A DNA stretch of 63,901 nucleotides, counting the filler. It is 5 parts of 5 records of this genome, joined end to end, with 100 filler letters (N's around TTAATTAATTAA, not from the genome) between each part and the next. Parts side by side here need not be neighbours in the genome. Positions count along the whole stretch, not along the records: positions 49,061 to 58,675 come from SRR22947727_3616; 4 more parts are not named here. The stretch is one strand, 5' to 3'. Below the pieces are notes generated by a model that was not told the origin of the DNA, ran no database searches, and worked only from the letters and a program-made list of their open reading frames with translations. The translations under genes and the position numbers were made by a program. Below are positions 10,478 through 59,667 of the stretch, piece by piece (the first letter of the stretch is position 1; every line of letters begins with the position of its first letter).

Positions 10478-10577
10478 NNNNNNNNNNNNNNNNNNNNNNN
10501 NNNNNNNNNNNNNNNNNNNNNTTAATTAATTAANNNNNNNNNNNNNNNNNNNNNNNNNNNNNNNNNNNNNNNNNNNN
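10478..10577. other. Artificial contig spacer
   Basis: 44 N + TTAATTAATTAA (stops in all frames) + 44 N. Confidence 0.99.
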
Positions 10578-27026: not shown

Positions 27027-27126
27027 NNNNNNNNNNNNNNNNNNNNNNNNNNNNNNNNNNNNNNNNNNNNTTAATTAATTAANNNNNNNNNNNNNNNNNN
27101 NNNNNNNNNNNNNNNNNNNNNNNNNN
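27027..27126. other. Artificial contig spacer
   Basis: Same N44-TTAATTAATTAA-N44 linker. Confidence 0.99.
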
Positions 27127-29652: not shown

Positions 29653-29676
29653 AGTTGAGTCCTCCCAATGTGGTCA

Positions 29677-31103
29677 TTAACTCGGAAAATCCGCTAATTC
29701 AAGACGCTTGCCATCCTCTCCCACCTCACCCGGTCGCCTTACCAGCCGACCTAGCGCCGCGAGAGCCACGAACAACAAGACAATCTCGATATGATAAACC
29801 GCTCCATAACCTGAAGCGGGTGTTTGCATTGCGACGCCTAATAGGCCCGCATCGGCCCAACCTGTGACTACGTCACGGATTGCACCCCCAGAAAACATCG
29901 CCAGCCCCGTCGCCGCTGCCTGCACGGCGCCCCAAGCGCCCAATGTCAGGCCAGCCATTTTGGCGCCACCGAATACCATCGCCGCGGTCAACATTCCGAC
30001 GGCGAATAAGCCATTGCCGACGCCGATCAAGGTCGCGCCTATTTGAAAGAGGCCTGTCGACTGCAGTGGTGCTGACAGGATCACAGCCACGAAGGCGACG
30101 ATACCAATGAGCACACCGACCGACGCGAGCCTGATCGGATCAACGCCCTTCCTCAGCGTACGTGAGGTCATTAGCAGCGCGAGCACCATGCCTCCGGCAA
30201 ATAACGCCGTCAGTAGCGTTGTCTCACTCACCGAAAGACCTAAGACATGGGCACCGTAGGGTTCAAGCAAGATATCCTGCATCGTAAACCCCATCGTGCC
30301 GAGCCCCAGCGCCCATAAGAGGCGACGCGCTTTGGGCAAATTAATAAACTCATCCCACGCAGACCCGAAAGTCGGCTTCTCGCGTTTATGGTCTGTCAAC
30401 TCTGGATGACGAACCTCTTGCTTCCACATCGCGGTGACATTGAGAATCAGTGTGATCACGGCGGCGCTCTGAATCACTTGGATGAGCCGCACATAATTAA
30501 AATCATCAAGCAACGCTGCAAAGATGACCGCGCTGCTAATCATGCCAATCAACAACATCAGATACAGTAACGCAACCACTCTGGGACGCGTCTCTTCAGT
30601 GGCCAGATCGGTGGCCAGTGCCAGGCCTGCTGTCTGAGAAACATGCATGCCGAGGCCCGTCAGCAAAAAGGCTCCCATCGCTGCGATAGGACCGATGACA
30701 GCGGGCCCAGAATGAGGCTCTGTCATGAGAATGAGCGCAAACGGCATGAACGCAAGGCCACCAAATTGCATCAGCGTGCCAGACCATAAGTAAGGAATAC
30801 GACGCCACCCCAAATACGATCGATGATAATCCGATCGATAGCCAATCAAGGCCCGGGCGGGAGCCAGTAGTAGCGGTATCGCCAGCATTAACGAGACCAG
30901 CGAAGTGCCCTGCCCCAGCTCGACCACCATCACTCTATTCAGGGTACCCGTCAGGAGCACGATGGCCATTCCTGTCGAGAATTGAAATAACGACAGGCGC
31001 CACAATCGAGGCAAGGTGAGGTCAACGGTCGCCGCATCGGCAAAAGGTAGCCAGCGATGACTGAATCCCCCCACCTGACGCACCAACTTGTTGGACGAAT
31101 GAT

Positions 31104-31107
<4 letters not shown>
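29677..31107 (-). CDS. lhaA: LH1 assembly protein LhaA (PucC/BCD family)
   Basis: WLPFADAAT, LTGTLNRVMVVEL and QTAGLALATDLA; lies between bchM and puhA. Confidence 0.9.
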
Positions 31108-39818
<8,711 letters not shown>

Positions 39819-45487: not shown

Positions 45488-48100
45488 GTGTTCATGCCGG
45501 CAGCTCCTTTTATCGTATCGATCATGTTATCGATGTTGGTCCTATGTCATAACACTGCCGCTGCCCCCATTGTGCAACCTGGCGCACCCGGCGAGACCTC
45601 CCGCTTACTCAGTGCTGACCTTGCCATTCAGATTGCCGATACCAGCCATACGCCGGACGATATTCAGTTTATGCAAGACATGATGGTGCACCATCAGCAG
45701 GCGCTGGATATGGCCCTGCTCGCCAAAGACCGCACCAATTCTCCCGGCCTTTTAGCCGCATCAGGCAGGATCGAGGCGTCACAAGCGGATGAAATTGCCT
45801 TTATGACGCAATGGCTCACCACGCGAGATGAACCGCTGATCAATCCAATCCATGTCGGCGATGAACACCATCACGTCATGATGGGCATGGCGACACCCGC
45901 GCAAATGCAAAGCCTTGCCGACGCAACCGGTAGCGACTTTGATCGACACTTTCTGACCTTGATGATCACCCATCACGAAGGTGCCCTCGAGATGGTTGAG
46001 ACGCTCATGGAACAGCCCGGTGCGGCCTACGATCCAACATTATTCGAATTCACAACGGATATTGTTAACGATCAAGAAAAAGAGATTGAGCGCATGCACG
46101 GCCTATTGGTCGACCTCTCAGAAGATCCGCGTGCGCACCTTACCGCCGGACTTTATGACGCTGAGGAAGCCATTTGGCACCTGGAAAAAGTGGCCGTATT
46201 GACCAAGCCCGCCGGATTTTATGACCCCGCCAACCCTGCCGAACTGCCACCGGCGCGATTCATGGTGACCGCGCCGATAACCGATGCTTCCCAAAAGGGT
46301 ACAGCTGTTGCCGACCATAGCGCGCACAACAGCACCGAGCACAACGAGATATCCAAGGCGACTGCGCAAGGTAAGTCTGAGCACGCAAGCGAGCAGCCTA
46401 AAGAGCATGGCAAAGACAGTACTGAGGCCATTGCGGAGGCACTCACTCCAAGCAGCACTGACGCCACCGAATCGGCCGAAGACCAAGACAAACCCGAAGC
46501 GCGCGCCCCGTTGCTGAGTTTTTCGAATACCGACATCGCGTTCTGGGACAATATTATGGTGGCCGGGAGTTACCATGGCTTCAATATCTATGAGCTGACT
46601 GAGGAGAATGCGCCTTCACTGCTGGCGTCAGTCGTTTGCCCCGGAGGACAAGGCGATGTCTCGATCGTCGGGCACCTCCTCATACTGTCGGTGGAAGAAA
46701 CACGTAGCCGTGTTGATTGTGGGTTAGAGGGCATCCGCGGCGACGTGAGCGCTGATCGTTTCCGCGGCATCCGTATTTTTGATATCAGTGATGTGACGCA
46801 GCCGCGGCAAGTGGGTGCCGTGCAAACGTGTCGCGGATCGCACACACACTCCGTCGTCGCAGGACCCGACGATCAAGGCAAGCTCATCGTCTACAACTCG
46901 GGGATTTCTCGCGTTCGCGAAGAGGAAGAAATGACGGGCTGTATCGATGAATCTCCGGGCGATAACCGTACCGCGCTATTTCGGATCGACGTCATCGAAA
47001 TTCCTGTCGAGGACCCTTCTCGCGCCCGCATTATTGATAGCCCCACCGTGTTTGCGGATCCTGAAACCGGTGCGTTGTCGGGTCTCTGGCGAGGAGGCGA
47101 CCATGGTGACGAGACGCAAGAGACCTATCGCACCGATCAGTGCCATGACATTACGGTCTTCCCCACTCTCAAACTCGCTGCCGGCGCGTGCTCCGGCAAT
47201 GGGATCTTGTTCGATATCAGTGATCCACGACATCCCGAACGTATCGATGTGGCGACCGATACCGGCTTTGCCTACTGGCACTCGGCCACGTTCAACAACG
47301 ACGGCACTAAAGTCATTTTCACGGATGAGTGGGGAGGCGGTACCCGTCCCCGCTGTCGCAGCTATGACCCGCTCACTTGGGGCGCCGATGCGATCTACGA
47401 TATCGTCGATGGCAAACTGGTCTTTCAAAGTCATTATAAAATGAAAGCCCCCCAGCTCGAGACCGAAAATTGTGTGGCCCATAACGGCTCCATCATCCCC
47501 GTGCCCGGTCGCGATATTTTTGTACAGGCGTGGTACCAAGGCGGCCTGTCGATAATCGATTTCACCGACTCACTGAATCCGGTTGAAATCGCTTACTTTG
47601 ATCGTGGGCCTGTCGATGCCGAAGATCTGGTTACGGGCGGTTATTGGTCAACGTATTGGTACAACGGCCACATTTACGGCACCGAAATTATCCGCGGGAT
47701 CGATGTTTTTGCGCTCACGCCGAGTGACTACCTCAGCGCCAATGAAATCGCAGCTGCCACATTAGCCGACCAGGGCAGGCAATTTAATCCGCAGCAGCAG
47801 TTTCCCAATACTTGGCCAGCCGCACCCATTGTGGGCATGGCTTACCTAGACCAATTGCTGAGAGCGCATCCCGAGAAGGGAGCAGAGATGGATCTACTCT
47901 ACGACCTACTCCGTGAGGCCGACGTGCGTCTCGCCGCACAAGAGACCGATACTGCACTCTCGGCGGAACTGCAACAGTGGGCACAGTCGCCAGCAGTGAT
48001 AACATCGACTGCGCTACAGGAGGTGCTTGAGGCGATCAGCGCACGTTTAATGGCAATTGATACCAACAACCTCGTTAGCACGACCGCACGACATCACTAA
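45488..48100 (+). CDS. Secreted DUF305 + LVIVD-type beta-propeller protein
   Basis: PIVQPGAPG, FMQDMMVHHQQA and MITHHEGA (DUF305); CPGGQGDVS, TCRGSHTH, CHDITV, HSATF and ENCVAHNG. Confidence 0.85.
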   Translation: MFMPAAPFIVSIMLSMLVLCHNTAAAPIVQPGAPGETSRLLSADLAIQIADTSHTPDDIQFMQDMMVHHQQALDMALLAKDRTNSPGLLAASGRIEASQADEIAFMTQWLTTRDEPLINPIHVGDEHHHVMMGMATPAQMQSLADATGSDFDRHFLTLMITHHEGALEMVETLMEQPGAAYDPTLFEFTTDIVNDQEKEIERMHGLLVDLSEDPRAHLTAGLYDAEEAIWHLEKVAVLTKPAGFYDPANPAELPPARFMVTAPITDASQKGTAVADHSAHNSTEHNEISKATAQGKSEHASEQPKEHGKDSTEAIAEALTPSSTDATESAEDQDKPEARAPLLSFSNTDIAFWDNIMVAGSYHGFNIYELTEENAPSLLASVVCPGGQGDVSIVGHLLILSVEETRSRVDCGLEGIRGDVSADRFRGIRIFDISDVTQPRQVGAVQTCRGSHTHSVVAGPDDQGKLIVYNSGISRVREEEEMTGCIDESPGDNRTALFRIDVIEIPVEDPSRARIIDSPTVFADPETGALSGLWRGGDHGDETQETYRTDQCHDITVFPTLKLAAGACSGNGILFDISDPRHPERIDVATDTGFAYWHSATFNNDGTKVIFTDEWGGGTRPRCRSYDPLTWGADAIYDIVDGKLVFQSHYKMKAPQLETENCVAHNGSIIPVPGRDIFVQAWYQGGLSIIDFTDSLNPVEIAYFDRGPVDAEDLVTGGYWSTYWYNGHIYGTEIIRGIDVFALTPSDYLSANEIAAATLADQGRQFNPQQQFPNTWPAAPIVGMAYLDQLLRAHPEKGAEMDLLYDLLREADVRLAAQETDTALSAELQQWAQSPAVITSTALQEVLEAISARLMAIDTNNLVSTTARHH

Positions 48101-48960: not shown

Positions 48961-49060
48961 NNNNNNNNNNNNNNNNNNNNNNNNNNNNNNNNNNNNNNNN
49001 NNNNTTAATTAATTAANNNNNNNNNNNNNNNNNNNNNNNNNNNNNNNNNNNNNNNNNNNN
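48961..49060. other. Artificial contig spacer
   Basis: Same linker. Confidence 0.99.
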
Positions 49061-49061
49061 T

Positions 49062-49664
49062 GATATCTACAATACCGTCTCTCAGACCGTCCACAAGGGC
49101 GCTGAAGGGGTCAAAGTGATACCGTGCGTCTATCAGCGCAGGTTTATCCAGTGGGCTCCCAGAGGCGCTGGTTCAGGCGCTCCTATTGCGGTGTTTGAAC
49201 CAACAGACAAACTGCCCCCGTTCGAGCGGGACCGTGAAACTAATAAAGACATGGTTGTCGGGGGTGATGGGTCGTACATCGAAGAAACGCACCAACACTT
49301 CGTAATCGTTCTTAACGAAGACGGCTCTGCGGAAACGGCGCTCATTGCAATGAAAAGCACGGGCCTCAAGAAAAGCCGTAAGTGGAACTCTATGATGAGT
49401 TCAATCACCATGAACGGCAAGAACGGTCCCTTCACACCGCCGCGGTTTAGCTCTGTATATTTGTTAAAGTCCGTCAGTGAAGAAAACAGTAAGGGCAAAT
49501 GGCATAATTGGGACATGTCCCGCATTGGCCCCGTAGAAGACAAGGGCATCTACAACAGAGCCCGTGAGTTCCGTGCAAGCATCGCTTCAGGGGACGTGGT
49601 TGTGAAACACCAAAGTGAAGAGGCGTCAAAGCCTGACTTCAACCCAGACGAAGTACCGTTCTAG
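49062..49664 (+). CDS. Putative phage single-stranded DNA-binding protein (5'-truncated)
   Basis: ALIAMKSTGLKKSRKWNSMM, NSKGKWHNW and acidic C-terminal tail DEVPF; lies upstream of the primase. Confidence 0.6.
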   Translation, partial: DIYNTVSQTVHKGAEGVKVIPCVYQRRFIQWAPRGAGSGAPIAVFEPTDKLPPFERDRETNKDMVVGGDGSYIEETHQHFVIVLNEDGSAETALIAMKSTGLKKSRKWNSMMSSITMNGKNGPFTPPRFSSVYLLKSVSEENSKGKWHNWDMSRIGPVEDKGIYNRAREFRASIASGDVVVKHQSEEASKPDFNPDEVPF

Positions 49665-49672
49665 TTTCACAA

Positions 49673-49701
49673 GGGCCGTAGCTGATGCTGCGGCCCGCTT
49701 T
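49673..49701 (+). terminator. Hairpin between SSB and primase (weak terminator or processing site)
   Basis: GGGCCGTAGC-TGAT-GCTGCGGCCC followed by GCTTT. Confidence 0.45.
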
Positions 49702-49717
49702 CCCAAAGGAAGACCCC

Positions 49718-51253
49718 ATGTCAGTAGATAAGTTTTCCGCCATCTTTGATGGTTTGAAACAGGCTTACGGCACGTACAAAGTTGAAAAAACTCAGTCCAA
49801 CGGTAAAAATACTGGCAAGGCTAGTATCATTAAGGAACCGCGGACCTCGAAACTCTGGAAAGGTCATCTGTCCGGCAAAGGCACCGCTGTAGGCATCATC
49901 CCGATTAACGAGGATAATTGCTGCAAGTGGGGCTGCATTGACGTTGACCAGTACCCGCTAGACCACAAAGTACTTATAGAAAAAATACGGGCTATGAAGC
50001 TGCCCTTGGTTGTCTGTCGATCAAAGTCCGGCGGCGCACACTGCTTTTTGTTCTGTAAGGAATGGATCGAAGCAAAGGAAATGCAGAAGGTCCTGACACA
50101 CCTGTCCGCGGCCCTCGGATATGGCGGTAGTGAGATATTTCCAAAGCAAGTAAAACTGCACTTGGACCGCGGAGACGTAGGTAACTTTCTAAACCTACCT
50201 TACTACGACGCAGAGGACGGCCTGAGATACGGCATTCTGGATGACGGCACGTCAGCAACGCTTGAAGAGTTCTTTGGCTTGTACGAGGCGCATGTGCAAA
50301 CGCCGGAGGAGATAGTCAAACTTCAAATGACTGACGCGCAGGTGAAAGGACCGCTTGCCGACGGACCGCCGTGCTTACAGCATCTCACAAAGGTTTTGAT
50401 TAGCGAAGGCGGAAGAAACAACGGTCTGTACAACATAGGCATTTATCTGCGCAAAGCGTTTCCCGATAGCTGGGAGACAGAGATACTGACATACAACACC
50501 CAGTTTTTAGACCCGCCCTTGCCGCTGCCAGAAGTAAACGTTGTTGCAAAGCAAGTTGGCAAAAAGGATTACTCGTACAAATGTTCTGACGCGCCCATCA
50601 ACGCGCACTGCAACAAAGAACTGTGCCAAACCATGAAGTTTGGTATCGGTGCCGCGGCTCAAAATGCCGCTGTGGGTAACCTGCGTAAGTACAACTCAAC
50701 ACCGCCCGTGTGGTTTATGGACGTTAACAGTGAACCTGTCGAACTGGATACTGACGGCCTGATGAACCAAACCTTATTTCAAAAAGCCTGTATGGAGCAG
50801 ATTAACTTCATGCCGCGAAGCGTTGCAAAGGCACAGTGGGAAGCGCGGATCAGCGCGATGATGCGTGAAATGACCGAAAACCAAAGCGCCATAATAGAAG
50901 TGTCCGTTGACGCCTCAGTGGGTGGTCAGTTCTACGACTTCCTAGAAGAGTTCTGTAGCCACATGCAACAGGCCAAAGACAGGGAAGAGATACTGCTTCG
51001 CCGTCCGTGGACCGATGAGGAAGAGGGTTACACATATTTCAGGCTCAAGGACTTCGAAGGGTTTTTAAAGAAGAACAAGTTCTTTGAATATAAGTCCCAC
51101 AAGATAGCCCAGCGTCTGCGCGAGGTGACAGGAGAAAGCTGCTTGCTTAGAATAAAAGGTCGCGTGGTACGTCTATGGAAGGTGCCAGCATTTGAAAACG
51201 GTGATATAGAATTAAGTACACCACAGTTTCAAGCGCAGGAGAGTCCGTTTTGA
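49718..51253 (+). CDS. Phage AEP-superfamily primase with PriCT-like domain
   Basis: WGCIDVD, RSKSGGAH, GNFLNLPY and PPCL..EGGRNNGLY; AGGA before ATG 49718. Confidence 0.8.
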   Translation: MSVDKFSAIFDGLKQAYGTYKVEKTQSNGKNTGKASIIKEPRTSKLWKGHLSGKGTAVGIIPINEDNCCKWGCIDVDQYPLDHKVLIEKIRAMKLPLVVCRSKSGGAHCFLFCKEWIEAKEMQKVLTHLSAALGYGGSEIFPKQVKLHLDRGDVGNFLNLPYYDAEDGLRYGILDDGTSATLEEFFGLYEAHVQTPEEIVKLQMTDAQVKGPLADGPPCLQHLTKVLISEGGRNNGLYNIGIYLRKAFPDSWETEILTYNTQFLDPPLPLPEVNVVAKQVGKKDYSYKCSDAPINAHCNKELCQTMKFGIGAAAQNAAVGNLRKYNSTPPVWFMDVNSEPVELDTDGLMNQTLFQKACMEQINFMPRSVAKAQWEARISAMMREMTENQSAIIEVSVDASVGGQFYDFLEEFCSHMQQAKDREEILLRRPWTDEEEGYTYFRLKDFEGFLKKNKFFEYKSHKIAQRLREVTGESCLLRIKGRVVRLWKVPAFENGDIELSTPQFQAQESPF

Positions 51254-51456
51254 CTGACAACGTATTAAAAGAAATGCGGAACAAAGAAATTGTCCGTCTG
51301 ATTGACGAACAAAAAGTGACCAAGACCGCTGTTGCTAAATGGTTTGGGATAACCAAGCAGCGGGTACATCAGATATACACTCGGGAGACAAACAATGTAT
51401 CGGATATTCGGACCTCCGGGGACGGGGAAGACAACAACACTACTCAACAAGGTTGA
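51250..51456 (+). CDS. Small HTH DNA-binding protein
   Basis: RNKEIVRL...TKTAVAKWFGITKQRVHQIY; TTG start overlapping the primase stop. Confidence 0.65.
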   Translation: MTDNVLKEMRNKEIVRLIDEQKVTKTAVAKWFGITKQRVHQIYTRETNNVSDIRTSGDGEDNNTTQQG

Positions 51457-52930
51457 TGACGCCCTGCAAAGCGGAGTAGAGCCAACCAAGATTGCTTTCT
51501 TAGCCTTCACCAGAAAAGCCGCGGAAGAAGCTAAAGAACGCGCCGCTGCACGGTTTAAGCTGGACCCCAAAAAGGACCTGTACTTCTTTCGCACCATCCA
51601 CAGTCTAGCGTTGTCACTGTCAGACATAAGCCCCGAACAAGTAATGCAGCCGTCGGACTACCGCGAACTGTCGGAAAGTATGGGCGTACATCTTGTAACT
51701 ACAAAAAGCGTTAATTTTGATGACGATCTGCCAGACATGATGAAAGCGTCTGATCCAATCTTAGGGTTGATAAATCTGGCGCGTCTTAGAAAAGTGCCTC
51801 TGCGTAAACAATACGACATGAGCAACACACATCTTACATGGAACGAGATAAATTACGTCGATAGCTGCCTTGGGCGATACAAACAGGTGCGGCACAAATT
51901 TGACTTCACAGACATGCTGGAGAATTTTGTAATAGAAGGCTCCAACTTCTGTCCAAACTTCGAACTCTGTTTTGTGGACGAGGCGCAAGACCTCTCTCCA
52001 ATGCAGTGGGATATTGCCCACCTTTTAGATGAACGATCCAAACGAATGTATGTCGCGGGTGACGATGACCAAGCTATCTACCGTTGGGCCGGAGCCGACG
52101 TGGACGCGTTCATAAACCTCGACGGCGGATCAGATACACTAAGCCAATCCTATCGCATCCCCTACAGCGTACACAAAGTGGCAGAAGGCATAGTCAAACG
52201 CATTCAACGGCGCGTCGTAAAGAATTACGAACCAAGACAAGAAATGGGAGAAGTCGGATACTACCGAGATATTATGGACATTGACCTGTCAGAAGGCTCT
52301 TGGCTCATAATGGCTCAAGCCGGATATATGCTAGAACCCGTGGCGCAATACCTAAAGTCCTTCGGTTACCTGTTCGAATATCGCGGCTCACGGTCCATCT
52401 CCGCTAAGATTAGTGACGCGGTAAACGGGTGGGAGCAACTGCGTAAGGGCCAAAGCGTTACAGGGCAAACAGCGCGGAACATCTATGAGTACATGTCCGC
52501 TAAGGATTCTATCAACTCTTGCCAAAGAATAAAAAAGGGCTTTAAGCGCCTCAAAGGTTTGGAAGACGCCGAGATGGTTAACATGCAAGACCTAAATGTT
52601 AACTTTGGACTACTCGCAACAAAAGATATGCTTTGGCATGAAGCTATGGACCGTCTGCCAGAAAAAGACAGGGCATATATAATCGCACTGCTTCGACGCG
52701 GAGAACGCTTTAACGGAACGCCCCGTATCATAGTATCCACGATCCACGGCACCAAAGGCGGAGAAGCCGACAACGTTGTAGTGTTCTCGGACATTAGCGC
52801 AGCGGCTCAACAAGATATGACCGAAAGACCCGACGATATGCACCGCGTGTTCTACGTTGCCGTCACGCGGACCCGAGAGCGTTTGTTTATTATCGAAGGC
52901 GAAAACTTAAACAGGAGTTATGACATATGA
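51395..52930 (+). CDS. UvrD/Rep-like SF1 helicase
   Basis: GPPGTGKTT, AFTRKAA, VDEAQD, GDDDQAIY, STIHGTKGGEADNV and YVAVTR. Confidence 0.92.
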   Translation: MYRIFGPPGTGKTTTLLNKVDDALQSGVEPTKIAFLAFTRKAAEEAKERAAARFKLDPKKDLYFFRTIHSLALSLSDISPEQVMQPSDYRELSESMGVHLVTTKSVNFDDDLPDMMKASDPILGLINLARLRKVPLRKQYDMSNTHLTWNEINYVDSCLGRYKQVRHKFDFTDMLENFVIEGSNFCPNFELCFVDEAQDLSPMQWDIAHLLDERSKRMYVAGDDDQAIYRWAGADVDAFINLDGGSDTLSQSYRIPYSVHKVAEGIVKRIQRRVVKNYEPRQEMGEVGYYRDIMDIDLSEGSWLIMAQAGYMLEPVAQYLKSFGYLFEYRGSRSISAKISDAVNGWEQLRKGQSVTGQTARNIYEYMSAKDSINSCQRIKKGFKRLKGLEDAEMVNMQDLNVNFGLLATKDMLWHEAMDRLPEKDRAYIIALLRRGERFNGTPRIIVSTIHGTKGGEADNVVVFSDISAAAQQDMTERPDDMHRVFYVAVTRTRERLFIIEGENLNRSYDI

Positions 52931-53238
52931 GCCGAGAACAGTTTATCCAAACAGAAATAGAACGAGCCTTTGAGGCTGCAGATGATGATTGGAAAAAGCA
53001 ATACTTTGAGAATGCCGTTAAGTTCTTACAGAAGAATAGGTATTTAGAGGGGGGTCACTTGTGCGCTTTTTGCAGAGAACAAGGTATGCCTGACCCGCAT
53101 CACCATAACGTATGGTGTTCTATGGTTCGTGTTTTAAACCAATATGGTTGGATCACAAAGATAGGGAAAATAAAGCCTACCTGTAAACACACGCATATCC
53201 ACGAAGTTACTGAATGGGAAAGCAACTTGTTCCGATGA
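52927..53238 (+). CDS. Phage hypothetical protein
   Basis: AGGAG RBS, ATGA coupling at both ends, PHHHNVW motif. Confidence 0.7.
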   Translation: MSREQFIQTEIERAFEAADDDWKKQYFENAVKFLQKNRYLEGGHLCAFCREQGMPDPHHHNVWCSMVRVLNQYGWITKIGKIKPTCKHTHIHEVTEWESNLFR

Positions 53239-53414
53239 ACTGTTGGCACTGTGGGACAGAATTAATCTGGGGCGGCGATCACGATTGTGAGGATAATGAA
53301 GAGTTTATTATGGTCACTAATCTTAGCTGCCCCAACTGTCAGTCGTTTTTTCTGGTTTATTTGCCCGAAACAGAAAATGGGGGAGTTTCCCCCGATGGAA
53401 AGGTTTACGAATGA
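53235..53414 (+). CDS. Small zinc-ribbon phage protein
   Basis: MNCWHCGTELIWGGDHD...LSCPNC; ATGA overlap. Confidence 0.75.
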   Translation: MNCWHCGTELIWGGDHDCEDNEEFIMVTNLSCPNCQSFFLVYLPETENGGVSPDGKVYE

Positions 53415-53488
53415 GCGAAGATTTCAACATTAAAATATCGGTTCAGGAGCGAACAACCAGCAAAGGTTTGGACCTTCTCAATGATTAA
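53411..53488 (+). CDS. 25-aa mini-ORF, possible gene remnant
   Basis: MSEDFNIKISVQERTTSKGLDLLND; overlaps the upstream stop (ATGA) and the downstream start. Confidence 0.35.
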   Translation: MSEDFNIKISVQERTTSKGLDLLND

Positions 53489-53849
53489 TCGAAGGGAGGC
53501 TTACGAAAGATTAGAAAATCTTTTAAAAAAGGCAATGGACCCTGCTTGCTCCCCCGCAGAAGCTCAAGCGTGTAAGGCAATGGCGGATAAACTAGCCGCG
53601 GAACTAGGTATTAAACGACGTAAAAAGAAACGTAAAGAAAAGTTGTTTGTAAAAGGACTGTACACAAAAGCCCCGCAAGAAAGCTCTCCTGAATGGGTGA
53701 TGTTCACTTTAAATATTAACCGCGTAGAACTAATTAATTGGCTTTTAACAAGCGGTCGCTCAGAGTGGATTAACGCTCAAGTGTGCAAAAGTCGCGGCAC
53801 GGGGAACTTTTACGCAGAAGTGAATCAATGGGAAGACGTAAATACATGA
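53481..53849 (+). CDS. Phage hypothetical protein (DUF2786-like N-terminal helical hairpin plus a second domain)
   Basis: LLKKAMDPACSPAEAQAC..MADKL, a basic linker, then FVKGL..P.WV...INWL...WINAQV...FYAEVNQW. Confidence 0.6.
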   Translation: MINRREAYERLENLLKKAMDPACSPAEAQACKAMADKLAAELGIKRRKKKRKEKLFVKGLYTKAPQESSPEWVMFTLNINRVELINWLLTSGRSEWINAQVCKSRGTGNFYAEVNQWEDVNT

Positions 53850-54136
53850 AAAAAGAAGAAATATTAAAAAAAAGTGCAGAGTTAGTGACAGGCAACCGTG
53901 CAAAAGACTACGGTGACGCGCTCGAAAACTTTGACCGTATCGCCACAGGGTGGAACGTAATTCTAAACGGGGCAATAGCCTCGCATGGATACCTAACCGC
54001 GCAGCACGTTGCGCTTATGATGGATTGGGTTAAAACAGCAAGACTACTAAACACCCTAGACCATGAAGACTCATGGATCGACAAGTGCGGATACAGCGCA
54101 ATCGGTGGGTCTTTTTCGGGAGAAAAAAGTGAGTAA
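53846..54136 (+). CDS. DUF6378-like phage protein
   Basis: L..SAELVTGNRAKDYGDA.ENF.RIA..W and VALMM..VK.AR....HEDSWIDKCGYSAIGG. Confidence 0.8.
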   Translation: MKKEEILKKSAELVTGNRAKDYGDALENFDRIATGWNVILNGAIASHGYLTAQHVALMMDWVKTARLLNTLDHEDSWIDKCGYSAIGGSFSGEKSE

Positions 54137-56024
54137 TCTAACAGTAGGCAACGCGTCCCTTTTATCCGAATGGGTGCCTCCACACGAACTGCCAGACCTA
54201 ACACGCGCCAAAACAATTTCCATCGACGTGGAAACCAAAGACCCCAATCTTAAAAAGATGGGCCCCGGATGGGCTAGAGGTGACGGCGAAGTGGTGGGAT
54301 ACGCCGTGGCAACTACAGATTGGGCCGGATACATCCCCATCAGGCACCGAGGCGGCGGCAACCTAGACGAAAAGCAAGTTAACAAGTGGCTCAAAAAGAT
54401 ATTCGACTGCCCCGCAGATAAAGTCATGCACAACGCTCAGTATGACCTCGGCTGGATCAAGCGCATGGGCTTTGATGTAAAGGGCCGTGTGATCGACACG
54501 ATGGTTGTGGCGTCCCTGCTTGATGAAAACCGTAGAAGCTTCAGTCTCAACAACCTCTGCTACGAACTGTTAGGCATAGCCAAGTCAGAAAAACTATTAA
54601 ACGCCGCCGCGGTGGAGTTCGGGTTCGATGCCAAAGCAGAAATGTGGAAGATGCCCGCAATGTTTGTCGGGCCTTACGCACAGAACGATGCAGAGATTAC
54701 GCTTAAACTGTGGGACTACCTGTCTGTACAAATCAAACAGGAAAACCTTGAGGGCGTTACAGAACTCGAACTGGACCTCCTGCCCTGCCTTGTAGACATG
54801 ACGTGGCGCGGTATTCGCGTTGATATGGACAAAGCCGAAATAACGCGGAACGCAATCCTAAAGCGTGAGAAAGAAGTCCACAAAGAAATAAAACGTATCT
54901 CCGGTTGCGACATAGAAATCTGGGCCGCGGCGTCCATTGCCAAAGCCTTCGATAAAATGGGCATAGAATACTTTAAAACAGAAAAGGGCTCTCCGTCCTT
55001 TACCAAGAAGTTTCTGTCAGAACATCCCGATAAGTTACCTAAACTGATCGTAGAAGCGCGGAACCTCAACAAAACGTCCGGCACGTTCATAAACAACATC
55101 CTGACCTTCTGTAACTCAGATGGACGTATCCATAGCCATATAAACCAAATTAGATCAGATGACGGCGGTACAGTGTCTGGGCGGTTCTCCATGAATAACC
55201 CAAACCTACAACAAATCCCCGCCCGTGACCCTGAGATAGGACCAATGATCCGGTCCCTGTTCCTGCCAGAAGAAGGCGAACAATGGGCCGCTATAGATTA
55301 CTCCCAACAAGAACCGCGCATATTAGTTCACTACGCACACGTATTTGGTAAAAGCCAGAACAGAGTGCTAGGGGGCGTCACAGAGTTTATACAAAGCTAT
55401 AAGGACGATCCGCGGACCGACTTCCATACGATGGTGGCAGAAATGGCGGGCATCCCGCGTAAACAAGCGAAGACCGTGAACCTCGGTATTATGTATGGCA
55501 TGGGCGTGGGTAAGCTGGCGATTGAACTTGATCTGCCCGAGGAACAGGCCAGAAGCCTAATTAACCAGTACCATGAGCGGGTGCCGTTTGTGAAAGAACT
55601 GATGAAGGGCGTACAAAGTCACCTTAGTCAGAAAGGAAGCCGAGGCCATGTGAGGTCCCTACTAGGCCGGAAGTGTCGGTTTGAGTTGTGGGAACCAAAG
55701 CAGTTTGGAATGTTTAAAGCACTGCCGTTCGAGCAAGCGGTGTTAGAACACGGCAAGCACACTCCGCTGGTCAGAGCGTACACCTACAAAGCCTTAAACA
55801 GGCTGATCCAAGCGTCCGCCGCGGACATGACCAAGAAAGCTATGGTCGATCTGTACCGAGAAGGCTATCTGCCCATGCTGCAAATACACGACGAACTGGC
55901 TATGTCAGTAACGTCCAGAGAAGAGGCAGAAAAGGTTGCACTAATCATGCAAAATGCTGTACCATTGGAGTTGCCAAGCCTTTGTGACGTTGAGTTGGGT
56001 CCGTCATGGGGCGAAGCGGTATAG
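54129..56024 (+). CDS. Phage family A DNA polymerase with 3'-5' exonuclease
   Basis: IDVET, HNAQYD and YAQNDA (exonuclease); SGRFS..NPNLQQIP, DYSQQEPR (motif A), RKQAKTVNLGIMYG (motif B) and QIHDEL (motif C). GTG start at 54129. Confidence 0.96.
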   Translation: MSNLTVGNASLLSEWVPPHELPDLTRAKTISIDVETKDPNLKKMGPGWARGDGEVVGYAVATTDWAGYIPIRHRGGGNLDEKQVNKWLKKIFDCPADKVMHNAQYDLGWIKRMGFDVKGRVIDTMVVASLLDENRRSFSLNNLCYELLGIAKSEKLLNAAAVEFGFDAKAEMWKMPAMFVGPYAQNDAEITLKLWDYLSVQIKQENLEGVTELELDLLPCLVDMTWRGIRVDMDKAEITRNAILKREKEVHKEIKRISGCDIEIWAAASIAKAFDKMGIEYFKTEKGSPSFTKKFLSEHPDKLPKLIVEARNLNKTSGTFINNILTFCNSDGRIHSHINQIRSDDGGTVSGRFSMNNPNLQQIPARDPEIGPMIRSLFLPEEGEQWAAIDYSQQEPRILVHYAHVFGKSQNRVLGGVTEFIQSYKDDPRTDFHTMVAEMAGIPRKQAKTVNLGIMYGMGVGKLAIELDLPEEQARSLINQYHERVPFVKELMKGVQSHLSQKGSRGHVRSLLGRKCRFELWEPKQFGMFKALPFEQAVLEHGKHTPLVRAYTYKALNRLIQASAADMTKKAMVDLYREGYLPMLQIHDELAMSVTSREEAEKVALIMQNAVPLELPSLCDVELGPSWGEAV

Positions 56025-56038
56025 TCTGCTCTTCAACT

Positions 56039-56072
56039 CCCCCGCTTTGGTTCAGCAAGGCGGGGGTTTTTT
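56039..56072 (+). terminator. Intrinsic terminator after the polymerase gene
   Basis: CCCCCGCTTTG-N6-CAAGGCGGGGG followed by TTTTTT. Confidence 0.88.
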
Positions 56073-56073
56073 G

Positions 56074-56102
56074 TTGTGTATCAAGTGTTTATCCTATATA
56101 GT
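56074..56102 (+). promoter_or_regulatory. Sigma70-like promoter P1 (RHH gene)
   Basis: TTGTGT-N17-TATAGT. Confidence 0.6.
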
Positions 56103-56130
56103 CCCAGAAACTCGCACAAAGGCGCATAAG

Positions 56131-56307
56131 ATGGATACTACAAAATGGAAATCAGTCCTCGTTCCGGTCGAAGTTTACCGCGAACTGAAGATTTTATCGG
56201 CTATCGAAGGCCGCACAATCAGCGGACAGCTACGCTTCATGTTTGACCAATACAGCAAACTGAAGTCCGTCCGAAATAAGCTCAAGCAACACTACGAAGA
56301 GGCTTGA
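56131..56307 (+). CDS. Small ribbon-helix-helix (Arc/CopG-like) regulator
   Basis: MDTTKWKSVLVPVEVYRELKILSAIEGRTISGQLRFMF: a beta strand with alternating hydrophobics, then helix-G-R-T-helix. Confidence 0.7.
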   Translation: MDTTKWKSVLVPVEVYRELKILSAIEGRTISGQLRFMFDQYSKLKSVRNKLKQHYEEA

Positions 56308-56332
56308 CCACTCCCATATTATCGCGTATGTA
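56304..56332 (+). promoter_or_regulatory. Sigma70-like promoter P2 (candidate sRNA)
   Basis: TTGACC-N17-TATGTA, overlapping the RHH stop codon. Confidence 0.65.
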
Positions 56333-56337
56333 ATAAG

Positions 56338-56418
56338 TATCTCCTCATGAGATATTAATATGTTTGTTCTCCAATAAACATGGAACCCTCACCGAAATAC
56401 CCGCGGTGAGGGTTTTTT
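56338..56418 (+). ncRNA. Candidate phage antisense small RNA (~80 nt, three hairpins)
   Basis: Promoter upstream; stems TATCTC/GAGATA and ATGTTTGTT-CTCC-AATAAACAT; terminator AACCCTCACCG/CGGTGAGGGTT plus T-run; 56360-56372 is the reverse complement of 56554-56566. Confidence 0.65.
56384..56418 (+). terminator. Intrinsic terminator of the candidate sRNA
   Basis: 11-bp perfect stem, 9-nt loop, T6 at 56413-56418. Confidence 0.88.
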
Positions 56419-56431
56419 CTTGTCCAATTAA

Positions 56432-56454
56432 TCACGCTAACGACGTTAGCGTGA
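56432..56454. repeat. Perfect 23-bp inverted repeat
   Basis: TCACGCTAACG-A-CGTTAGCGTGA. Confidence 0.9.
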
Positions 56455-56507
56455 CGGATTTAAAAAACCTAAGACTAAGGGTCTATTCAAGCATTTATTA
56501 TTTGTAC

Positions 56508-56536
56508 TTGACTATCTCGTATAGTTGGTTTATCTT
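56508..56536 (+). promoter_or_regulatory. Sigma70-like promoter P3 (ParB-like/early operon)
   Basis: TTGACT-N17-TATCTT preceded by an AT-rich tract. Confidence 0.75.
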
Positions 56537-56564
56537 AGCTTTACTCAACCAAAGGAGAACAAAC

Positions 56565-57404
56565 ATGCTTGAGTCGCGCTTTCTTGATAAAGCAGCCGCA
56601 ACAGAACTGCTTAGTAATAACTGGCATAAAAACCGTAAAATCCACAGAGGTATTAAAGATCAACACGTTAAAGACCTTGCGTTTAAAATTACACAAGGCC
56701 GCTGGGTTGTAGACGCAATGGAAACGCCTATTCTAATTGATACAGACGGTATTTTATATAACGGTCAAAATAGATGTATGGCTGTAATTCTCGCTGACCA
56801 AGGTGTAGTGGTGCAGTGCCGCATAGAGTCGCCGGAAGAGTGCCGAAGACTGTACGCGTCTCTGGACCTCGGCAAAGCCCGATCAATCGCAGACATTACA
56901 GGATTAAACCAAAGCAACATAGTGCAGCCCATACTCTACCTCATGCGCTGCGCGGGCCTTGATGGACGGCTTAAAGATGAAGCCGTCGTATCGCGGATCG
57001 CGGATACTTACATGGGAGATATCTTGCGCCACTTCGATCAAAACACCCGTTGGGTAAAAAACAATCGGTGCTTTAATTCTGTTCAATTTAAGGCCGCAAT
57101 GGCGTACTGTGTTCATAGACGGGTATTGCCCGATTACGAAGCTATCTCGGTGCTTGAAATGTTGCAGAACAACAAAGACTACCACTGGCCTTCTATGTAT
57201 TTAAATTACCGCGAACAGATCATGTTTCCAAACGGTAAGCTAAATACTAGCGGTAAAGTCGTAGCAAACGATAAGTTCTGCCGAGGCGTTTATCTGATCG
57301 AACGCCGCATGAAACATCAAAGCAAAATTCAAATATCCAGCGGCTTTCTGGAGGACCTTGCTTCAAACCTTCGCCGCGTGATCCGCGAGGCTGCTGCCGA
57401 ATGA
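56565..57404 (+). CDS. ParB/Srx (DGQHR-like) domain phage protein
   Basis: A.ELL..N..NRKI....V..LA..I..GRW.....PILIDTDG.LYNGQNRCMAV and SLDLGKARS..D; RBS AAGGAG before ATG 56565. Confidence 0.7.
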   Translation: MLESRFLDKAAATELLSNNWHKNRKIHRGIKDQHVKDLAFKITQGRWVVDAMETPILIDTDGILYNGQNRCMAVILADQGVVVQCRIESPEECRRLYASLDLGKARSIADITGLNQSNIVQPILYLMRCAGLDGRLKDEAVVSRIADTYMGDILRHFDQNTRWVKNNRCFNSVQFKAAMAYCVHRRVLPDYEAISVLEMLQNNKDYHWPSMYLNYREQIMFPNGKLNTSGKVVANDKFCRGVYLIERRMKHQSKIQISSGFLEDLASNLRRVIREAAAE

Positions 57405-57619
57405 ATTATAAGATAGAAAAAAACATCCCCCTTCCCGCGTCACAGCGGAAAGGGAAGTTCGCTATCCTAGAGGATTTGGAAGTTGGCGACAGTTTCCACG
57501 TTGCAGATGTAACCGCGCCAGCGGGTATCTATTCAAAAGCAGAAAGCCTCGGGATCAAAGTAACCGTAAGAAGCATCCTACACCATAGCGGCGGCTTCAG
57601 AGTTTGGAGAATCGAATGA
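57401..57619 (+). CDS. Small phage protein (KIEKNIPLP...LEVGDSF...RVWR family), putative DNA-binding
   Basis: Recurrent phage motif pattern; ATGA coupling. Confidence 0.7.
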   Translation: MNYKIEKNIPLPASQRKGKFAILEDLEVGDSFHVADVTAPAGIYSKAESLGIKVTVRSILHHSGGFRVWRIE

Positions 57620-57915
57620 GCGACAAAGCTTGGCACATAAGCTACCTGTCCGCTATCGTCGGACCGTGCGCCGCAACCACAGATGACGGTTGTATGGCGT
57701 GGGAAGACACAGAAAAAAGTGACTTTGTTATGCGCCTACTTGACAGGGATAACGACGCCAAAAACCTCCTACTCGTTATTCAACCAGAAATGAATGAGTT
57801 GGCGATTTACACCCTGACCGGATACTGCGTGGCAAACGATCTGCCGTACATGATTAAAGATTGGGATACCCTGTCCGCAGAAGGGCAAAAAGAAGCCCAG
57901 AAAACGAGGCACTGA
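57616..57915 (+). CDS. Phage hypothetical protein
   Basis: GGAG RBS, ATGA overlap. Confidence 0.65.
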   Translation: MSDKAWHISYLSAIVGPCAATTDDGCMAWEDTEKSDFVMRLLDRDNDAKNLLLVIQPEMNELAIYTLTGYCVANDLPYMIKDWDTLSAEGQKEAQKTRH

Positions 57916-57917
57916 AC

Positions 57918-58121
57918 ATGATCCACCGCGACGAGTACGAACGCGTCTGCGAAGAAAACAGAAAGTTGCGGGACTTGGTTAAAGCCAAGTCCCCAATGGC
58001 TATGATGCAAATGCTTAAAAGGTTTCTGGGAGGGAACTATGACCGTACTGGAACAGTGGAAGACCCTAGCGAAAATAGAAAACGCCAAGATGCTGGAACC
58101 CTACGAGGGCCAAAAACCTAA
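57918..58121 (+). CDS. Phage hypothetical protein
   Basis: GAGG RBS; starts 3 bp after the previous stop; coiled-coil-like N-terminus. Confidence 0.5.
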   Translation: MIHRDEYERVCEENRKLRDLVKAKSPMAMMQMLKRFLGGNYDRTGTVEDPSENRKRQDAGTLRGPKT

Positions 58122-58332
58122 CTACGGTATCGTCAAAAATAAGATCAAAGGCGGCGGACCGCGGCTCTCGGAAATTAACCGCTCACTCGCCGCACAAAAA
58201 CTTTTGGAAATGTCCCAAAAAGGTTATACTCTGGAAGAAGCCGCCGTTGAAACAAACTCCCCAATAGAGAAAGTTCTAGGCCGCGCCAGACGCTATCAAA
58301 TCACGTTTAAAGGGCAAGAGGAGCTTTTATGA
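58039..58332 (+). CDS. Phage hypothetical protein with possible C-terminal HTH
   Basis: GGAGGG RBS; GYTLEEAAVETNSPIEKVLGRARRY. Confidence 0.6.
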   Translation: MTVLEQWKTLAKIENAKMLEPYEGQKPNYGIVKNKIKGGGPRLSEINRSLAAQKLLEMSQKGYTLEEAAVETNSPIEKVLGRARRYQITFKGQEELL

Positions 58333-58592
58333 GTAATCACCTATCAGAAGTGGCAGAGGGCATCATAGAGGCTTGCCCAACGCAGCTTAACCCCGATGAA
58401 ATGTCCACCCTGATTGCGTACATGATCTGGTCATACGGTATGCAGGGCGATTGGGACGATATGCTGCCCAAAATCGTGCGCTGTATAAATCTGGATGATG
58501 GACACGCCCGTACCGTCAGAGTGGCTAACAGAGACGCTATCAAGTTTCTGGATAAAGTAAGAGAGGATGTTAGCAATGCCAGACGCAGTTAA
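58329..58592 (+). CDS. Phage hypothetical protein
   Basis: GAGGAG RBS, ATGA overlap. Confidence 0.65.
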   Translation: MSNHLSEVAEGIIEACPTQLNPDEMSTLIAYMIWSYGMQGDWDDMLPKIVRCINLDDGHARTVRVANRDAIKFLDKVREDVSNARRS

Positions 58593-58675
58593 ACTGTTCT
58601 CCGAAATAGATCAGCAGTTCCTAGAACTGGAACAACAATTCGAAATAATCAAAAAACAACGGGAGACAATAGAAC
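58576..58675 (+). CDS. Phage hypothetical protein (3'-truncated)
   Basis: GAGG RBS; MPDAVKLFSEIDQQFLELEQQF stays open to the contig end. Confidence 0.45.
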
Positions 58676-58775
58676 NNNNNNNNNNNNNNNNNNNNNNNNN
58701 NNNNNNNNNNNNNNNNNNNTTAATTAATTAANNNNNNNNNNNNNNNNNNNNNNNNNNNNNNNNNNNNNNNNNNNN
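58676..58775. other. Artificial contig spacer
   Basis: Same linker. Confidence 0.99.
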
Positions 58776-58863
58776 CAACCGATGGAGTTTCTGGCGGATA
58801 TAGCTTTAACCGCACCAGCATTGTTAAGACCTGCATTTGTCGTCTTAAAATAAAGAGGTTTTT

Positions 58864-59667
58864 GTGAGCAGCCCAAACCAAAATGATGATATTCTTGAGC
58901 TTCGAAATATTCATAAAAGCTATGATGGGTTGGCCATTTTGCGCGGTGTCAGCCTATCGGCAAAGCCAGGGACGGTAACCTCGATTATTGGATCATCGGG
59001 TTCTGGAAAATCGACTTGGCTTCGTTGTGCCAATCTTCTTGAAACCTGTCAGGCTGGCGATATTGTTTTTGGCGGTGAGCCATTACGCTGGCATGGCGAA
59101 GCCGAAGAAAGACGCCCCGCAAATAATGCGCAGGTAAGGGCGCTTCGCCAACGTATCGCGATGGTGTTTCAGCAATTCAACCTTTGGACACATATGACGA
59201 TCCTCGACAATGTGATCGAGGCGCCAGTGACCGTTCTTGGCAAAAACCGTGAGCAGATGCGTGAGATCGGACGGTCATTGCTGGCCAAGGTTGGGATTGA
59301 AGATAAAGCAGATGTGTGGCCGGCAATGTTGTCAGGTGGGCAGCAGCAGCGCGCCGCCATTGCGCGCGCATTAGCCATGGAACCTGATGTGATCTTGCTG
59401 GACGAACCGACATCAGCCCTTGATCCAGAGCTTGAGGCCGAAGTTGTTGAGGTGATTTTACAGCTGGCGCGGGATGGCCGTACGATGATTATGGTGACGC
59501 ATGATATGCAGCTTGTCCGTGACATTTCGGATCAAGTGATTTTTCTGCATGAAGGACAAATTGAAGAACAGGGCGAGAGCGCACAATTATTTGATGCGCC
59601 GAAATCGCCAAGATTAAAGCAGTTTTTACGTTCATCTATTACAATTGACAATAAATCTGCTAGATAG
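58864..59667 (+). CDS. Polar amino-acid ABC transporter ATPase (HisP/OccP-like)
   Basis: GSSGSGKST, MVFQQFNLW, LSGGQQQR and DEPTSALDPE. Confidence 0.93.
   Translation: MSSPNQNDDILELRNIHKSYDGLAILRGVSLSAKPGTVTSIIGSSGSGKSTWLRCANLLETCQAGDIVFGGEPLRWHGEAEERRPANNAQVRALRQRIAMVFQQFNLWTHMTILDNVIEAPVTVLGKNREQMREIGRSLLAKVGIEDKADVWPAMLSGGQQQRAAIARALAMEPDVILLDEPTSALDPELEAEVVEVILQLARDGRTMIMVTHDMQLVRDISDQVIFLHEGQIEEQGESAQLFDAPKSPRLKQFLRSSITIDNKSAR

Follow-up and report, generated by a model that had tools for sequence, protein, structure and literature searches.

In phage P22, the ribbon-helix-helix (RHH) repressors Arc and Mnt are part of immI control, and on plasmid pMV158 the RHH protein CopG and the antisense RNA II together control repB; RNA II is a counter-transcript, and its target is a replication initiator. 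The c4 RNA of phages P1 and P7 shares the strand of its target, which lies downstream, and is excised from a transcript that contains both. In extracts of PMC12197685, c4 is described as an RNA of ~77 nt whose loop sequences pair around the ribosome-binding site (RBS) of the downstream gene, and the sar RNA of P22 as a short RNA which, after infection, limits the expression of the next gene, with whose RBS it pairs; phage RNAs controlling the phage's own genes are, in the same extracts, almost only those of the temperate models P22, P1 and lambda. Here we analyse a 63.9-kb stretch of DNA (the window), in which a gene for a 58-aa protein of RHH type, a structured RNA of ~80 nt and a promoter with its leader follow the PolA gene and lead into a 279-aa open reading frame (ORF) with a ParB/Srx-like N-terminal domain (Table 1); all of the evidence is in silico. 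We lean, by a modest degree, towards the view that these elements form a conserved cassette of negative feedback in which the RHH protein and an RNA directed against an RBS (anti-RBS RNA) gate a swappable cargo gene. The cassette stands where the replication genes give way to a hypervariable block of accessory genes, which are small and probably early.

With P22 immI the cassette has in common an RHH repressor, here a presumed one, and a short RBS-pairing RNA that would jointly limit the next gene. However, sar lies on the opposite strand across its target, whereas the RNA described here is on the same strand, 181 nt upstream, with 13-nt complementarity; and immI has two RHH genes and an antirepressor as target, whereas here we find one RHH gene, variable cargo and no lysogeny genes. 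The likeness to c4 of P1 and P7 is that of a same-strand upstream RNA with loops that pair at a downstream RBS, but c4 is processed from the target transcript and belongs to temperate phages, while the present RNA has its own terminator and its target its own promoter; no match to the C4 family of Rfam was obtained in 55900-58900 of the window at E up to 1, nor in six relatives at E up to 0.1. As on pMV158, a CopG-like RHH protein and an RBS-blocking small RNA would set the dose of one gene; there, though, RNA II is a counter-transcript with a fixed initiator target, in contrast to the same-strand RNA and the variable cargo seen here. The cassette is a member of none of these types (P22 Arc/sar, P1 c4, pMV158 CopG/RNA II), since neither an Rfam match nor a counter-transcript, an antirepressor or lysogeny genes were found. 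An initial annotation of the locus had drawn the parallel with P22, which is reasonable as far as the Arc/sar logic goes; membership of the immI type, which would call for a counter-transcript, an antirepressor target and a temperate phage, does not follow, given the shared strand, the variable cargo and the lack of an integrase match among the ORFs over 130 aa of the complete relative. For the same reason of strand, the RNA is no antisense transcript, as that annotation had called it.

The RNA at 56336-56420 is predicted to fold at -33.3 kcal/mol (z -6.7), and none of 200 shuffled sequences folded as well. Within it, the 5' arm and CUCC loop of hairpin 2 (56360-56372) are complementary at 13 of 13 positions to 56554-56566. 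This target, which runs from the GGAG Shine-Dalgarno sequence through the spacer to the first two letters (AU) of the 279-aa ORF, lies in the loop of a small leader hairpin. This pair of 13-mers is unique in the window, even when up to two mismatches are allowed, and the match is better than the pairing of the arm with its own 3' arm, which includes a G-U pair. When both partners are folded together, hairpin 2 opens and 18 nt pair with one bulge. In the complete genome of a close relative, the IMG/VR contig G002, 34 GGAG-type RBSs were compared, and that of the cargo gene pairs best with the arm, at -19.8 kcal/mol as against -13.9 for the next and a median of -8.9. There is thus indeed a structured, terminated RNA in front of the next gene, as had been proposed, and it is complementary to the RBS of that gene. 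A comparison of the whole small RNA with sliding windows of the contig (RNAduplex) was uninformative, being dominated by long interior loops and by the RNA's own region, and a search of 55900-58900 against Rfam at E up to 1 returned only a sub-threshold NsiR1 match, on the PolA terminator. RNA libraries from two studies (four metatranscriptome runs) contain contigs that span the RHH gene together with the small RNA (e.g. 56073-56406), and also contigs over the cargo ORF; since such libraries can contain DNA, and the contigs show no ends, this coverage indicates presence in the libraries rather than transcription. The segment ~56496-56558 is bridged by no contig among the matches listed, a gap that is unusable as a transcript boundary because the spacer varies between strains and the contigs lack ends.

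The 279-aa protein is encoded at 18 viral loci with 87-98% identity. Two of them (L016 and L018) were excluded from the alignment because their upstream DNA is missing, so that the window and 16 loci, 17 sequences in all, were compared. From the counts of invariant columns (Table 1) it follows that P1, P2, hairpin 2 and the P3 leader (91-94% invariant) are under stronger constraint than the synonymous sites of the RHH gene (47%). The stem of hairpin 1 is kept through shifted or partly compensating changes. The palindrome, in contrast to its earlier listing as a control site, lies in an indel hot spot: it is deleted in two of the 16 relatives (L007 and L008), and in five of the other 14 (L001, L013, L014, L015 and L017) its right arm is altered, leaving it asymmetric.

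A scan with P0241, a relative of the RHH protein, gave 535 viral loci. From these the 80 best were retained; 66 of the 80 were examined, 14 being set aside as contigs already among L001-L017, and with two too short, 61 distinct loci were obtained. A second RHH scan yielded 357 viral loci (best 80 kept), which may overlap the 535. A hairpin with a CUCC loop, followed by a terminator, stands just 3' of the RHH gene in all 61 distinct loci as well as in the window, and the cassette lies directly 3' of PolA in 21 of 22 representatives, the remaining one having too little upstream DNA. The co-occurrence of the elements in relatives, suggested at the outset as a synteny survey, therefore extends over the 16 aligned loci and the 61 RHH loci. 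At most loci the hairpin begins within ~10 nt of the RHH stop codon and P2 is absent, so that the hairpin there forms the 3' untranslated region (3'UTR) of the RHH mRNA; P2 is present in L088 and the clade of the window, and a further clade, obtained with P0292, has it with -10 boxes that are better. Downstream of the terminator, whose stems differ between clades but still pair, follow a conserved promoter (TTGACwTTmTCCCATAC...) and a conserved leader with its RBS.

The arm and the RBS spacer change together between clades. In clade A (the window and L091) the arm reads UUUGUU|CUCC and the RBS GGAG|AACAAA, whereas in clade B the arm is ACAUU|CUCC and the RBS, in the best cases, GGAG|AAUGU; MAFFT misaligned the hairpins of clade A with those of clade B. 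Mean duplex energies are -16.6 for A with A and -11.3 for B with B, compared to -9.1 for the A arm with the B target and -8.8 for the B arm with the A target. Over 28 distinct cognate pairs the mean is -11.7, whereas the 112 further GGAG RBSs in these loci have a mean of -9.2 (one-sided Mann-Whitney p 1.4e-5, uncorrected for relatedness). A different arrangement is found, among the loci listed, in another RHH clade (L113-L138, e.g. L113 1335-1440): a good promoter of P2 type overlaps the RHH stop codon and is followed by a leader of ~70 nt, which ends in a terminator-like hairpin that abuts the next ATG with its GGGG 3' arm and its U-run, and which looks like an attenuator or a leader that sequesters the Shine-Dalgarno sequence.

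Of the three promoters, a consensus scan calls P3. Over 55500-58900 the scan gives 4 promoter-like sites compared to 3.7 in shuffled sequences, and 4 terminator-like sites compared to 4.1; as these counts are no higher than in shuffles, the reality of the sites rests on their conservation and on the 13-nt complementarity. The terminator at 56383-56420 has the perfect stem and T-run of a rho-independent terminator and is part of the minimum-energy fold; it is omitted by the scan because its 9-nt loop exceeds the limit of 8. Homologues of P1 with two TCCyATA boxes 10 bp apart occur in other clades, as do homologues of P3, which there precede variable cargo, and a P2-like promoter with the same box is present at G002 54779, in front of another small gene. 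The motif TATCNNNTATRKW, which was drawn up from P1, P2 and P3, has precisely these three occurrences in the window, where 0.18 would be expected. TCC[CT]ATA has 84 occurrences in 21 representative loci (11.4 expected); 34 of them fall in the last 50 nt before the RHH start, where they come as two per locus with a distance of 10 bp, and ~40 are in the P3 zone, counts which, the loci being homologous, speak for conservation and not for independent enrichment. We consider TCCyATA (10 bp apart) and TATC-N3-TAT to be candidate operator boxes of the RHH protein, judging from the sequence. The small-gene region of G002 has more units made up of a terminator, a promoter and a GGAGAAC-type RBS, at 54440-54845 (L028 14440-14845) and at 395-515 (L026 395-515); they include a P2-like promoter with a TCCCATAT..ATCGC box, and an ORF-free gap of 390 nt precedes 54837. 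These units could be further targets of the RHH protein or the RNA, or could encode more small RNAs.

Several observations weigh against a cassette in which both the protein and the RNA regulate. P1 and P2 are not called by the consensus scan, promoter-like sites are not enriched over shuffles, and the -10 box of P2 is weak, its final T being missing. The box statistics are post hoc or come from homologous loci, and for starts, ends and pairing the RNA-level data consist of contigs only. In L014, L015 and L017 a 1-nt deletion in the target shortens the pairing from 13 to 10 nt while the RNA is unchanged; within the window clade both partners are otherwise invariant, so that there is no co-variation there, and the contrast between clades, being a single one, amounts to one evolutionary event only. 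Many clade-B targets (e.g. L053, L075 and L068) pair over 6 nt only (GGAGAA), and the layout downstream of the RHH gene is a different one in other RHH clades. When the entire 3' region was matched with the next RBS in an unguided test, the signal was weak, with 6 of 44 cognates in the best 5% of non-cognates and a median percentile of 0.28, and two of the best cases were artefacts in which the 'target' overlaps the terminator. Finally, the 3' arm of hairpin 2 is similar to the target leader, so that common descent could explain part of the match.

Three of these facts, namely the similar 3' arm, the 6-nt pairs of clade B and the weak unguided test, together with a 10-nt string that is common to the hairpin region and P3 in some clade-B loci (e.g. 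L032), would suit an explanation in which the complementarity has no regulatory role: the hairpins would stabilise or terminate the RHH mRNA, the match of CUCC to GGAG, with its A/U-rich flank, would stem from a duplicated promoter-leader ancestry, and the RHH protein would be the sole regulator. We nonetheless regard this as unlikely, since the 13/13 match surpasses the pairing of the arm with its own 3' arm, is unique in the window and singles out the cargo RBS as the best of 34 in G002, while hairpin 2 is far more conserved than hairpin 1 or synonymous sites, and arm and RBS spacer co-change between clades. It is also conceivable that the RNA works only in cis, as an insulating fold-back that hides the cargo RBS in read-through RNA, with the cargo translated only from P3 RNA. 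In a read-through RNA (from ~56340 or 56109 to 56625) the pairing of 56360-72 with 56554-66 is indeed predicted at probabilities of 0.97-0.99 for 12-13 of the 13 pairs, and in most clades the hairpin is a plain 3'UTR of the RHH gene with no promoter of its own. Read-through should, however, be rare given the strength of the 56420 terminator; a P2-type promoter, from which the short RNA could be made alone, is retained in the clade of the window, in L088 and in other clades; and CUCC and its target are both presented in loops, an arrangement typical of kissing pairs that act in trans. We thus see a purely cis-acting role as distinctly unlikely. With regard to the RNA-RNA interaction as such, we consider it well supported in the window clade and moderately supported in clade B, and no rule for the RHH family as a whole.

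The assignment of the 58-aa protein to the RHH type, already made in the initial annotation, is supported by its AlphaFold2 (AF2) model and, at borderline strength, by its sequence. Pfam RHH_5 matches it at E 3.2e-5 with 24 bits, below the cut-off of 26, and several of its 425 homologues carry a precomputed match to PF07878; in 36 aligned sequences 17 of the first 35 residues are invariant. A profile search of the PDB gave AvtR (E 0.13) and pArc (E 0.71) only. The AF2 model, with a predicted local distance difference test (pLDDT) score of 87.4, has an extended segment at residues 6-12, a helix at 13-26, a turn at G27-R28-T29 and a second helix at 30-57, in line with the strand, helix A, G-x-S/T/N turn and helix B of the RHH superfamily. 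Among the matches listed, its Foldseek neighbours are mostly RHH proteins (MatP, Arc, CopG, MazE, AmrZ, ParG and omega) at E values of 0.1-1.7, which are non-significant for so small a domain; CopG aligns to the model with a root-mean-square deviation of 1.1 Å over 39 residues. We presume the protein to be a repressor.

The 279-aa cargo protein has no Pfam family at E up to 0.1 and no NCBIfam or PADLOC match, while phrog_5931 ('unknown function') matches its N-terminal part. Its family, with 320 cluster representatives at E up to 1e-3 that are mostly 260-300 aa long, has the consensus motifs N..NR, DGQHR and LD.G..R...D, but the window protein and its relatives of 60-62% identity have NGQNR instead of DGQHR (for background on the DGQHR and DGQQR motifs see the extracts of PMC4619093). 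With this pentapeptide and no profile match, the window protein falls outside the DGQHR domain of DndB (PF14072/TIGR03187); PF14072 matches one of 45 family members (E 6.7e-4), and that one is a different protein. Likewise, no Pfam profile, those of ParBc and ParB_N included, matches the window protein or 44 of the 45 family members. In the AF2 model (pLDDT 88.7) the N-domain has the ParB/Srx fold, and residues 1-105 give PadC (Z 6.9), KorB (6.5), sulfiredoxin (5.6) and pNOB8 ParB-N (5.3) as top rows in VIA-align, at middling Z. The best Foldseek match is ParB (E 0.02, probability 0.97); in BFVD the matches, with E values between 2e-7 and 2e-5, are to phage proteins that bear the label 'HTH' or 'ParB-like nuclease' (the latter at 2e-5); and the Atlas neighbours are viral clusters, 24 of 30 in the set that carries ParB_N (present in 14% of the listed cluster's members). 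For the helical C-terminal part no structure matched clearly, and a profile search of solved structures with the ParB-like family gave nothing useful. The ParB/Srx fold that had been proposed for the controlled protein thus applies to an N-domain that is of the DGQHR kind. In this fold, and in the family consensus DGQHR, the cargo resembles the DGQHR/DndB and GmrS (DUF262) branch; it differs in its NGQNR, in the lack of a profile match and in a C-terminal part that finds no structural counterpart.

The window-type leader precedes the ParB-like ORF in 17 loci and a 186-aa phrog_4652 protein in L091, L092, L094 and L095, while in L103 (2224-2260) it is fused directly to the start of the 72-aa ORF, the ParB-like ORF being precisely absent. 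The identity between L103 and the window is 96.8% up to 56567 and then resumes at 57401; the Shine-Dalgarno sequence of the L103 leader is GGGG in place of GGAG. These three states behind one leader lead us to conclude that the ParB-like gene is a swappable cargo, exchanged at the start codon; it is interchangeable and stands outside the switch, and the earlier view of it as an integral part of the module has to be given up for one in which the leader is conserved and can be followed by any of many first genes, this one among them. Across the phages, the first gene behind the promoter-leader differs, with 23 distinct N-termini and at least 20 ORFans; among 17 of these proteins that were scanned, none matched Pfam and 4 matched PHROG families, all of unknown function, and no antirepressor family was matched among the variable cargo. 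A genome-contig scan with the 279-aa protein found no relative, and searches with single distant homologues found one locus only, L031, which has no RHH module upstream. As had been noted, the ORF heads a run of coupled small genes; for the two that follow it in the window there was no informative family match, and none of the seven proteins of the locus had a match in NCBIfam or PADLOC. At the junction of cargo exchange, within the first codons of the 72-aa ORF, there is a minus-strand GC-rich hairpin of 12 bp with a T-run (57427-57456); no minus-strand gene is nearby.

This exchange bears on two readings in which the RHH and ParB-like proteins are partners. Many type II antitoxins are RHH proteins, as the structural neighbours illustrate, and the tight double control suggests a dose-sensitive product, both of which might hint at a toxin-antitoxin pair, as raised in the initial annotation. 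The ParB-like protein would then be the toxin, and either the RHH protein or the RNA its antitoxin. A type II operon is a co-transcribed, fixed pair, however, whereas here a terminator and a separate promoter stand between the two genes, the same RHH gene and RNA precede unrelated genes, L103 keeps both of them in the absence of the ParB-like ORF, and there is no PADLOC match; we therefore hold this reading to be very improbable. Even less can be said for a partition module, in which the RHH protein would be a ParG-like centromere binder, the ParB-like protein its partner and the palindrome the centromere: ParG is among the structural neighbours, the cargo has a ParB-type N-domain and a perfect palindrome separates the two genes, but no ParA-type ATPase match was found nearby, the palindrome is deleted in G002 (which is L008) and L007 and asymmetric in five others, and the ParB-like gene is optional, as seen in L103.

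The window consists of draft contigs chained by N-runs with the six-frame-stop linker TTAATTAATTAA at 10522, 27071, 49005 and 58720 (linker stretches 10478-10577, 27027-27126, 48962-49060 and 58677-58776), and genes that flank a linker are therefore not neighbours in any genome. What had been described as a gap-free genome around the cassette is in fact one contig piece of 9.6 kb between linkers (49061-58676), which is 96-97% identical to two IMG/VR viral contigs. One of these is G002, of 57,960 bp, which has a terminal repeat of 127 bp and is rated complete. Nearly all of its genes are on one strand, with the SNF2 helicase on the other, in the order terminase, portal, capsid, tail and internal virion proteins, SNF2 helicase, primase, helicase and PolA, followed by the cassette and then by small ORFs and the small terminase subunit. 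By aa identity of PolA, the nearest deposited phages are DSL-LC04 (56%) and two Pelagibacter phages, HTVC023P and HTVC027P (47-49%), all of which share the synteny of small genes after PolA. In these nearest deposited phages tblastn found no RHH protein, and a nucleotide search of deposited phages with 55900-58700 gave no match; in a term search of the main text of two papers on HTVC023P-type or related genomes (PMC9599517, PMC10149686), RHH, ParB, integrase and sigma went unmentioned.

We take the phage to be a ~58-kb marine phage of lytic type. Among the G002 ORFs longer than 130 aa (63 of 81 ORFs of at least 40 aa were scanned) there is no integrase or recombinase, and no match to a repressor family. 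The nearest cultured relatives are HTVC023P-type phages, and HTVC027P is described, in extracts of PMC12753301, as lytic and dependent on the host RNA polymerase, with early genes of unknown function. The lysis/lysogeny or immunity switch that had been proposed on first inspection is thus hard to sustain: a P22 immI-like switch would have a similar parts list, with an RHH protein, an RBS-covering small RNA and a downstream effector, the ParB-like protein then being the antirepressor or its equivalent, but with such a gene content, such relatives and a cargo that varies and is missing from L103, we give it very little credence.

In the two-armed feedback cassette that we favour, the host RNA polymerase would start at P1 (RHH mRNA), P2 (the ~80-nt RNA) and P3 (cargo operon), and the P1 and P2 transcripts would both stop at the 56420 terminator, so as to contain hairpin 2. 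The CUCC loop and 5' arm of the latter would pair, in trans or in cis within read-through RNA, with the first gene of the P3 operon at its start codon and Shine-Dalgarno sequence and block its translation, probably also lowering that of the coupled ORFs downstream through the ATGA overlaps. An RHH dimer would probably bind the TCCyATA / TATC-N3-TAT boxes common to the three promoters and turn transcription off, and both arms together may produce a short pulse or a tightly limited dose of cargo. More tentatively, and as something possible rather than probable, we suggest that in a widespread group of uncultured lytic marine phages the RHH mRNA is bifunctional, coding for the repressor and acting through its 3' end, or through a short form with a promoter of its own, as a riboregulator that closes the RBS of the next operon; RHH protein and RNA would then make up a portable pulse generator with a fixed promoter-leader socket, in which genes for host takeover or counter-defence are swapped at the start codon, the NGQNR ParB/Srx protein being one of them. 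If true, lytic-type uncultured ocean phages would possess a cassette of an RHH protein and a same-strand anti-RBS RNA, which would explain the dose-controlled expression of a hypervariable block of ORFans. The conserved P3 leader up to the ATG would be a defined socket for cargo that would help to find accessory or counter-defence genes, and that could serve as a compact part for expression control. All elements that the initial annotation had named, from the first terminator, P1, the RHH gene, P2 and the small RNA to the second terminator, the palindrome, P3 and the ParB-like ORF, were found at the positions it gave.

Table 1. Elements of the cassette in window coordinates, with the number of invariant columns in the alignment of 17 sequences.
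Feature	Position	Strand	Details and basis	Invariant columns
Intrinsic terminator of the PolA unit	56039-56066 and T-run, to 56074	+	11-bp stem with 8 GC pairs; ends the replication-gene unit	36/36
P1, promoter-like, for the RHH gene	56074-56102	+	TTGTGT 56074-79, 17-nt spacer, TATAGT 56097-102; by eye	39/42 (56069-56110)
TCCTATA box in P1	56093-56099	+	read from the sequence	
RHH gene, 58 aa, presumed repressor	56131-56307	+	Pfam RHH_5 below cut-off; AF2 model	110/116 (codon positions 1+2); 27/58, 47% (codon position 3)
P2, promoter-like	56304-56332	+	TTGACC 56304-09, 17-nt spacer, TATGTA 56327-32; -35 overlaps the RHH stop codon	33/35 (non-coding columns)
TCCCATA box in P2	56312-56318	+	read from the sequence	
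Structured RNA, ~80 nt, three hairpins	56336-56420	+	predicted fold and terminator	
Hairpin 1	56336-56356	+	predicted fold	10/21
Hairpin 2, CUCC loop	56359-56382	+	predicted fold; anti-RBS 13-mer is 56360-56372	22/24
Terminator of the RHH mRNA and small RNA	56383-56420	+	arms 56384-94 / 56404-14, 11 perfect pairs, T6	28/38
Palindrome, perfect 11-bp inverted repeat	56432-56454	.	within spacer DNA that is variable and dispensable	3/79 (spacer with palindrome)
P3, promoter of the cargo operon	56508-56536	+	TTGACT 56508, 17-nt spacer, TATCTT to 56536; called by the scan	59/65 (P3 and leader, 56500-56564)
Leader hairpin with the 13-mer target	56543-56574	+	Shine-Dalgarno GGAG 56554-57 and AUG 56565 in the loop	
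Cargo ORF, 279 aa	56565-57404	+	ParB/Srx-type N-domain, NGQNR motif, helical C-terminal part	
Two small ORFs, 72 and 99 aa	57401-57619, 57616-57915	+	ATGA overlaps in the run of the cargo gene	

Outside the cassette, the window from 58864 on has bacterial-looking genes, among them an ABC-transporter-like ORF, while the piece 27127-48961 seems to hold structural genes of the same phage in the opposite orientation; its 1252-aa ORF (32719-36477, minus strand) is comparable to a 1251-aa ORF of G002 (28785-32540). Between helicase and PolA, G002 carries an HNH endonuclease and a 214-aa sigma-70 region-4 protein (45950-47166; L028 5950-7163). Neither is present on the window contig, where ~1.15 kb of G002 (45953-47108) is almost unmatched; the former is an optional endonuclease of homing type, and the latter a sigma-like gene. 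Upstream of the cassette, a DUF6378 ORF (53846-54136, Pfam E 3.6e-25) overlaps the annotated start of PolA (54063-56024) by 74 nt, and the actual PolA start may be further downstream than 54063.

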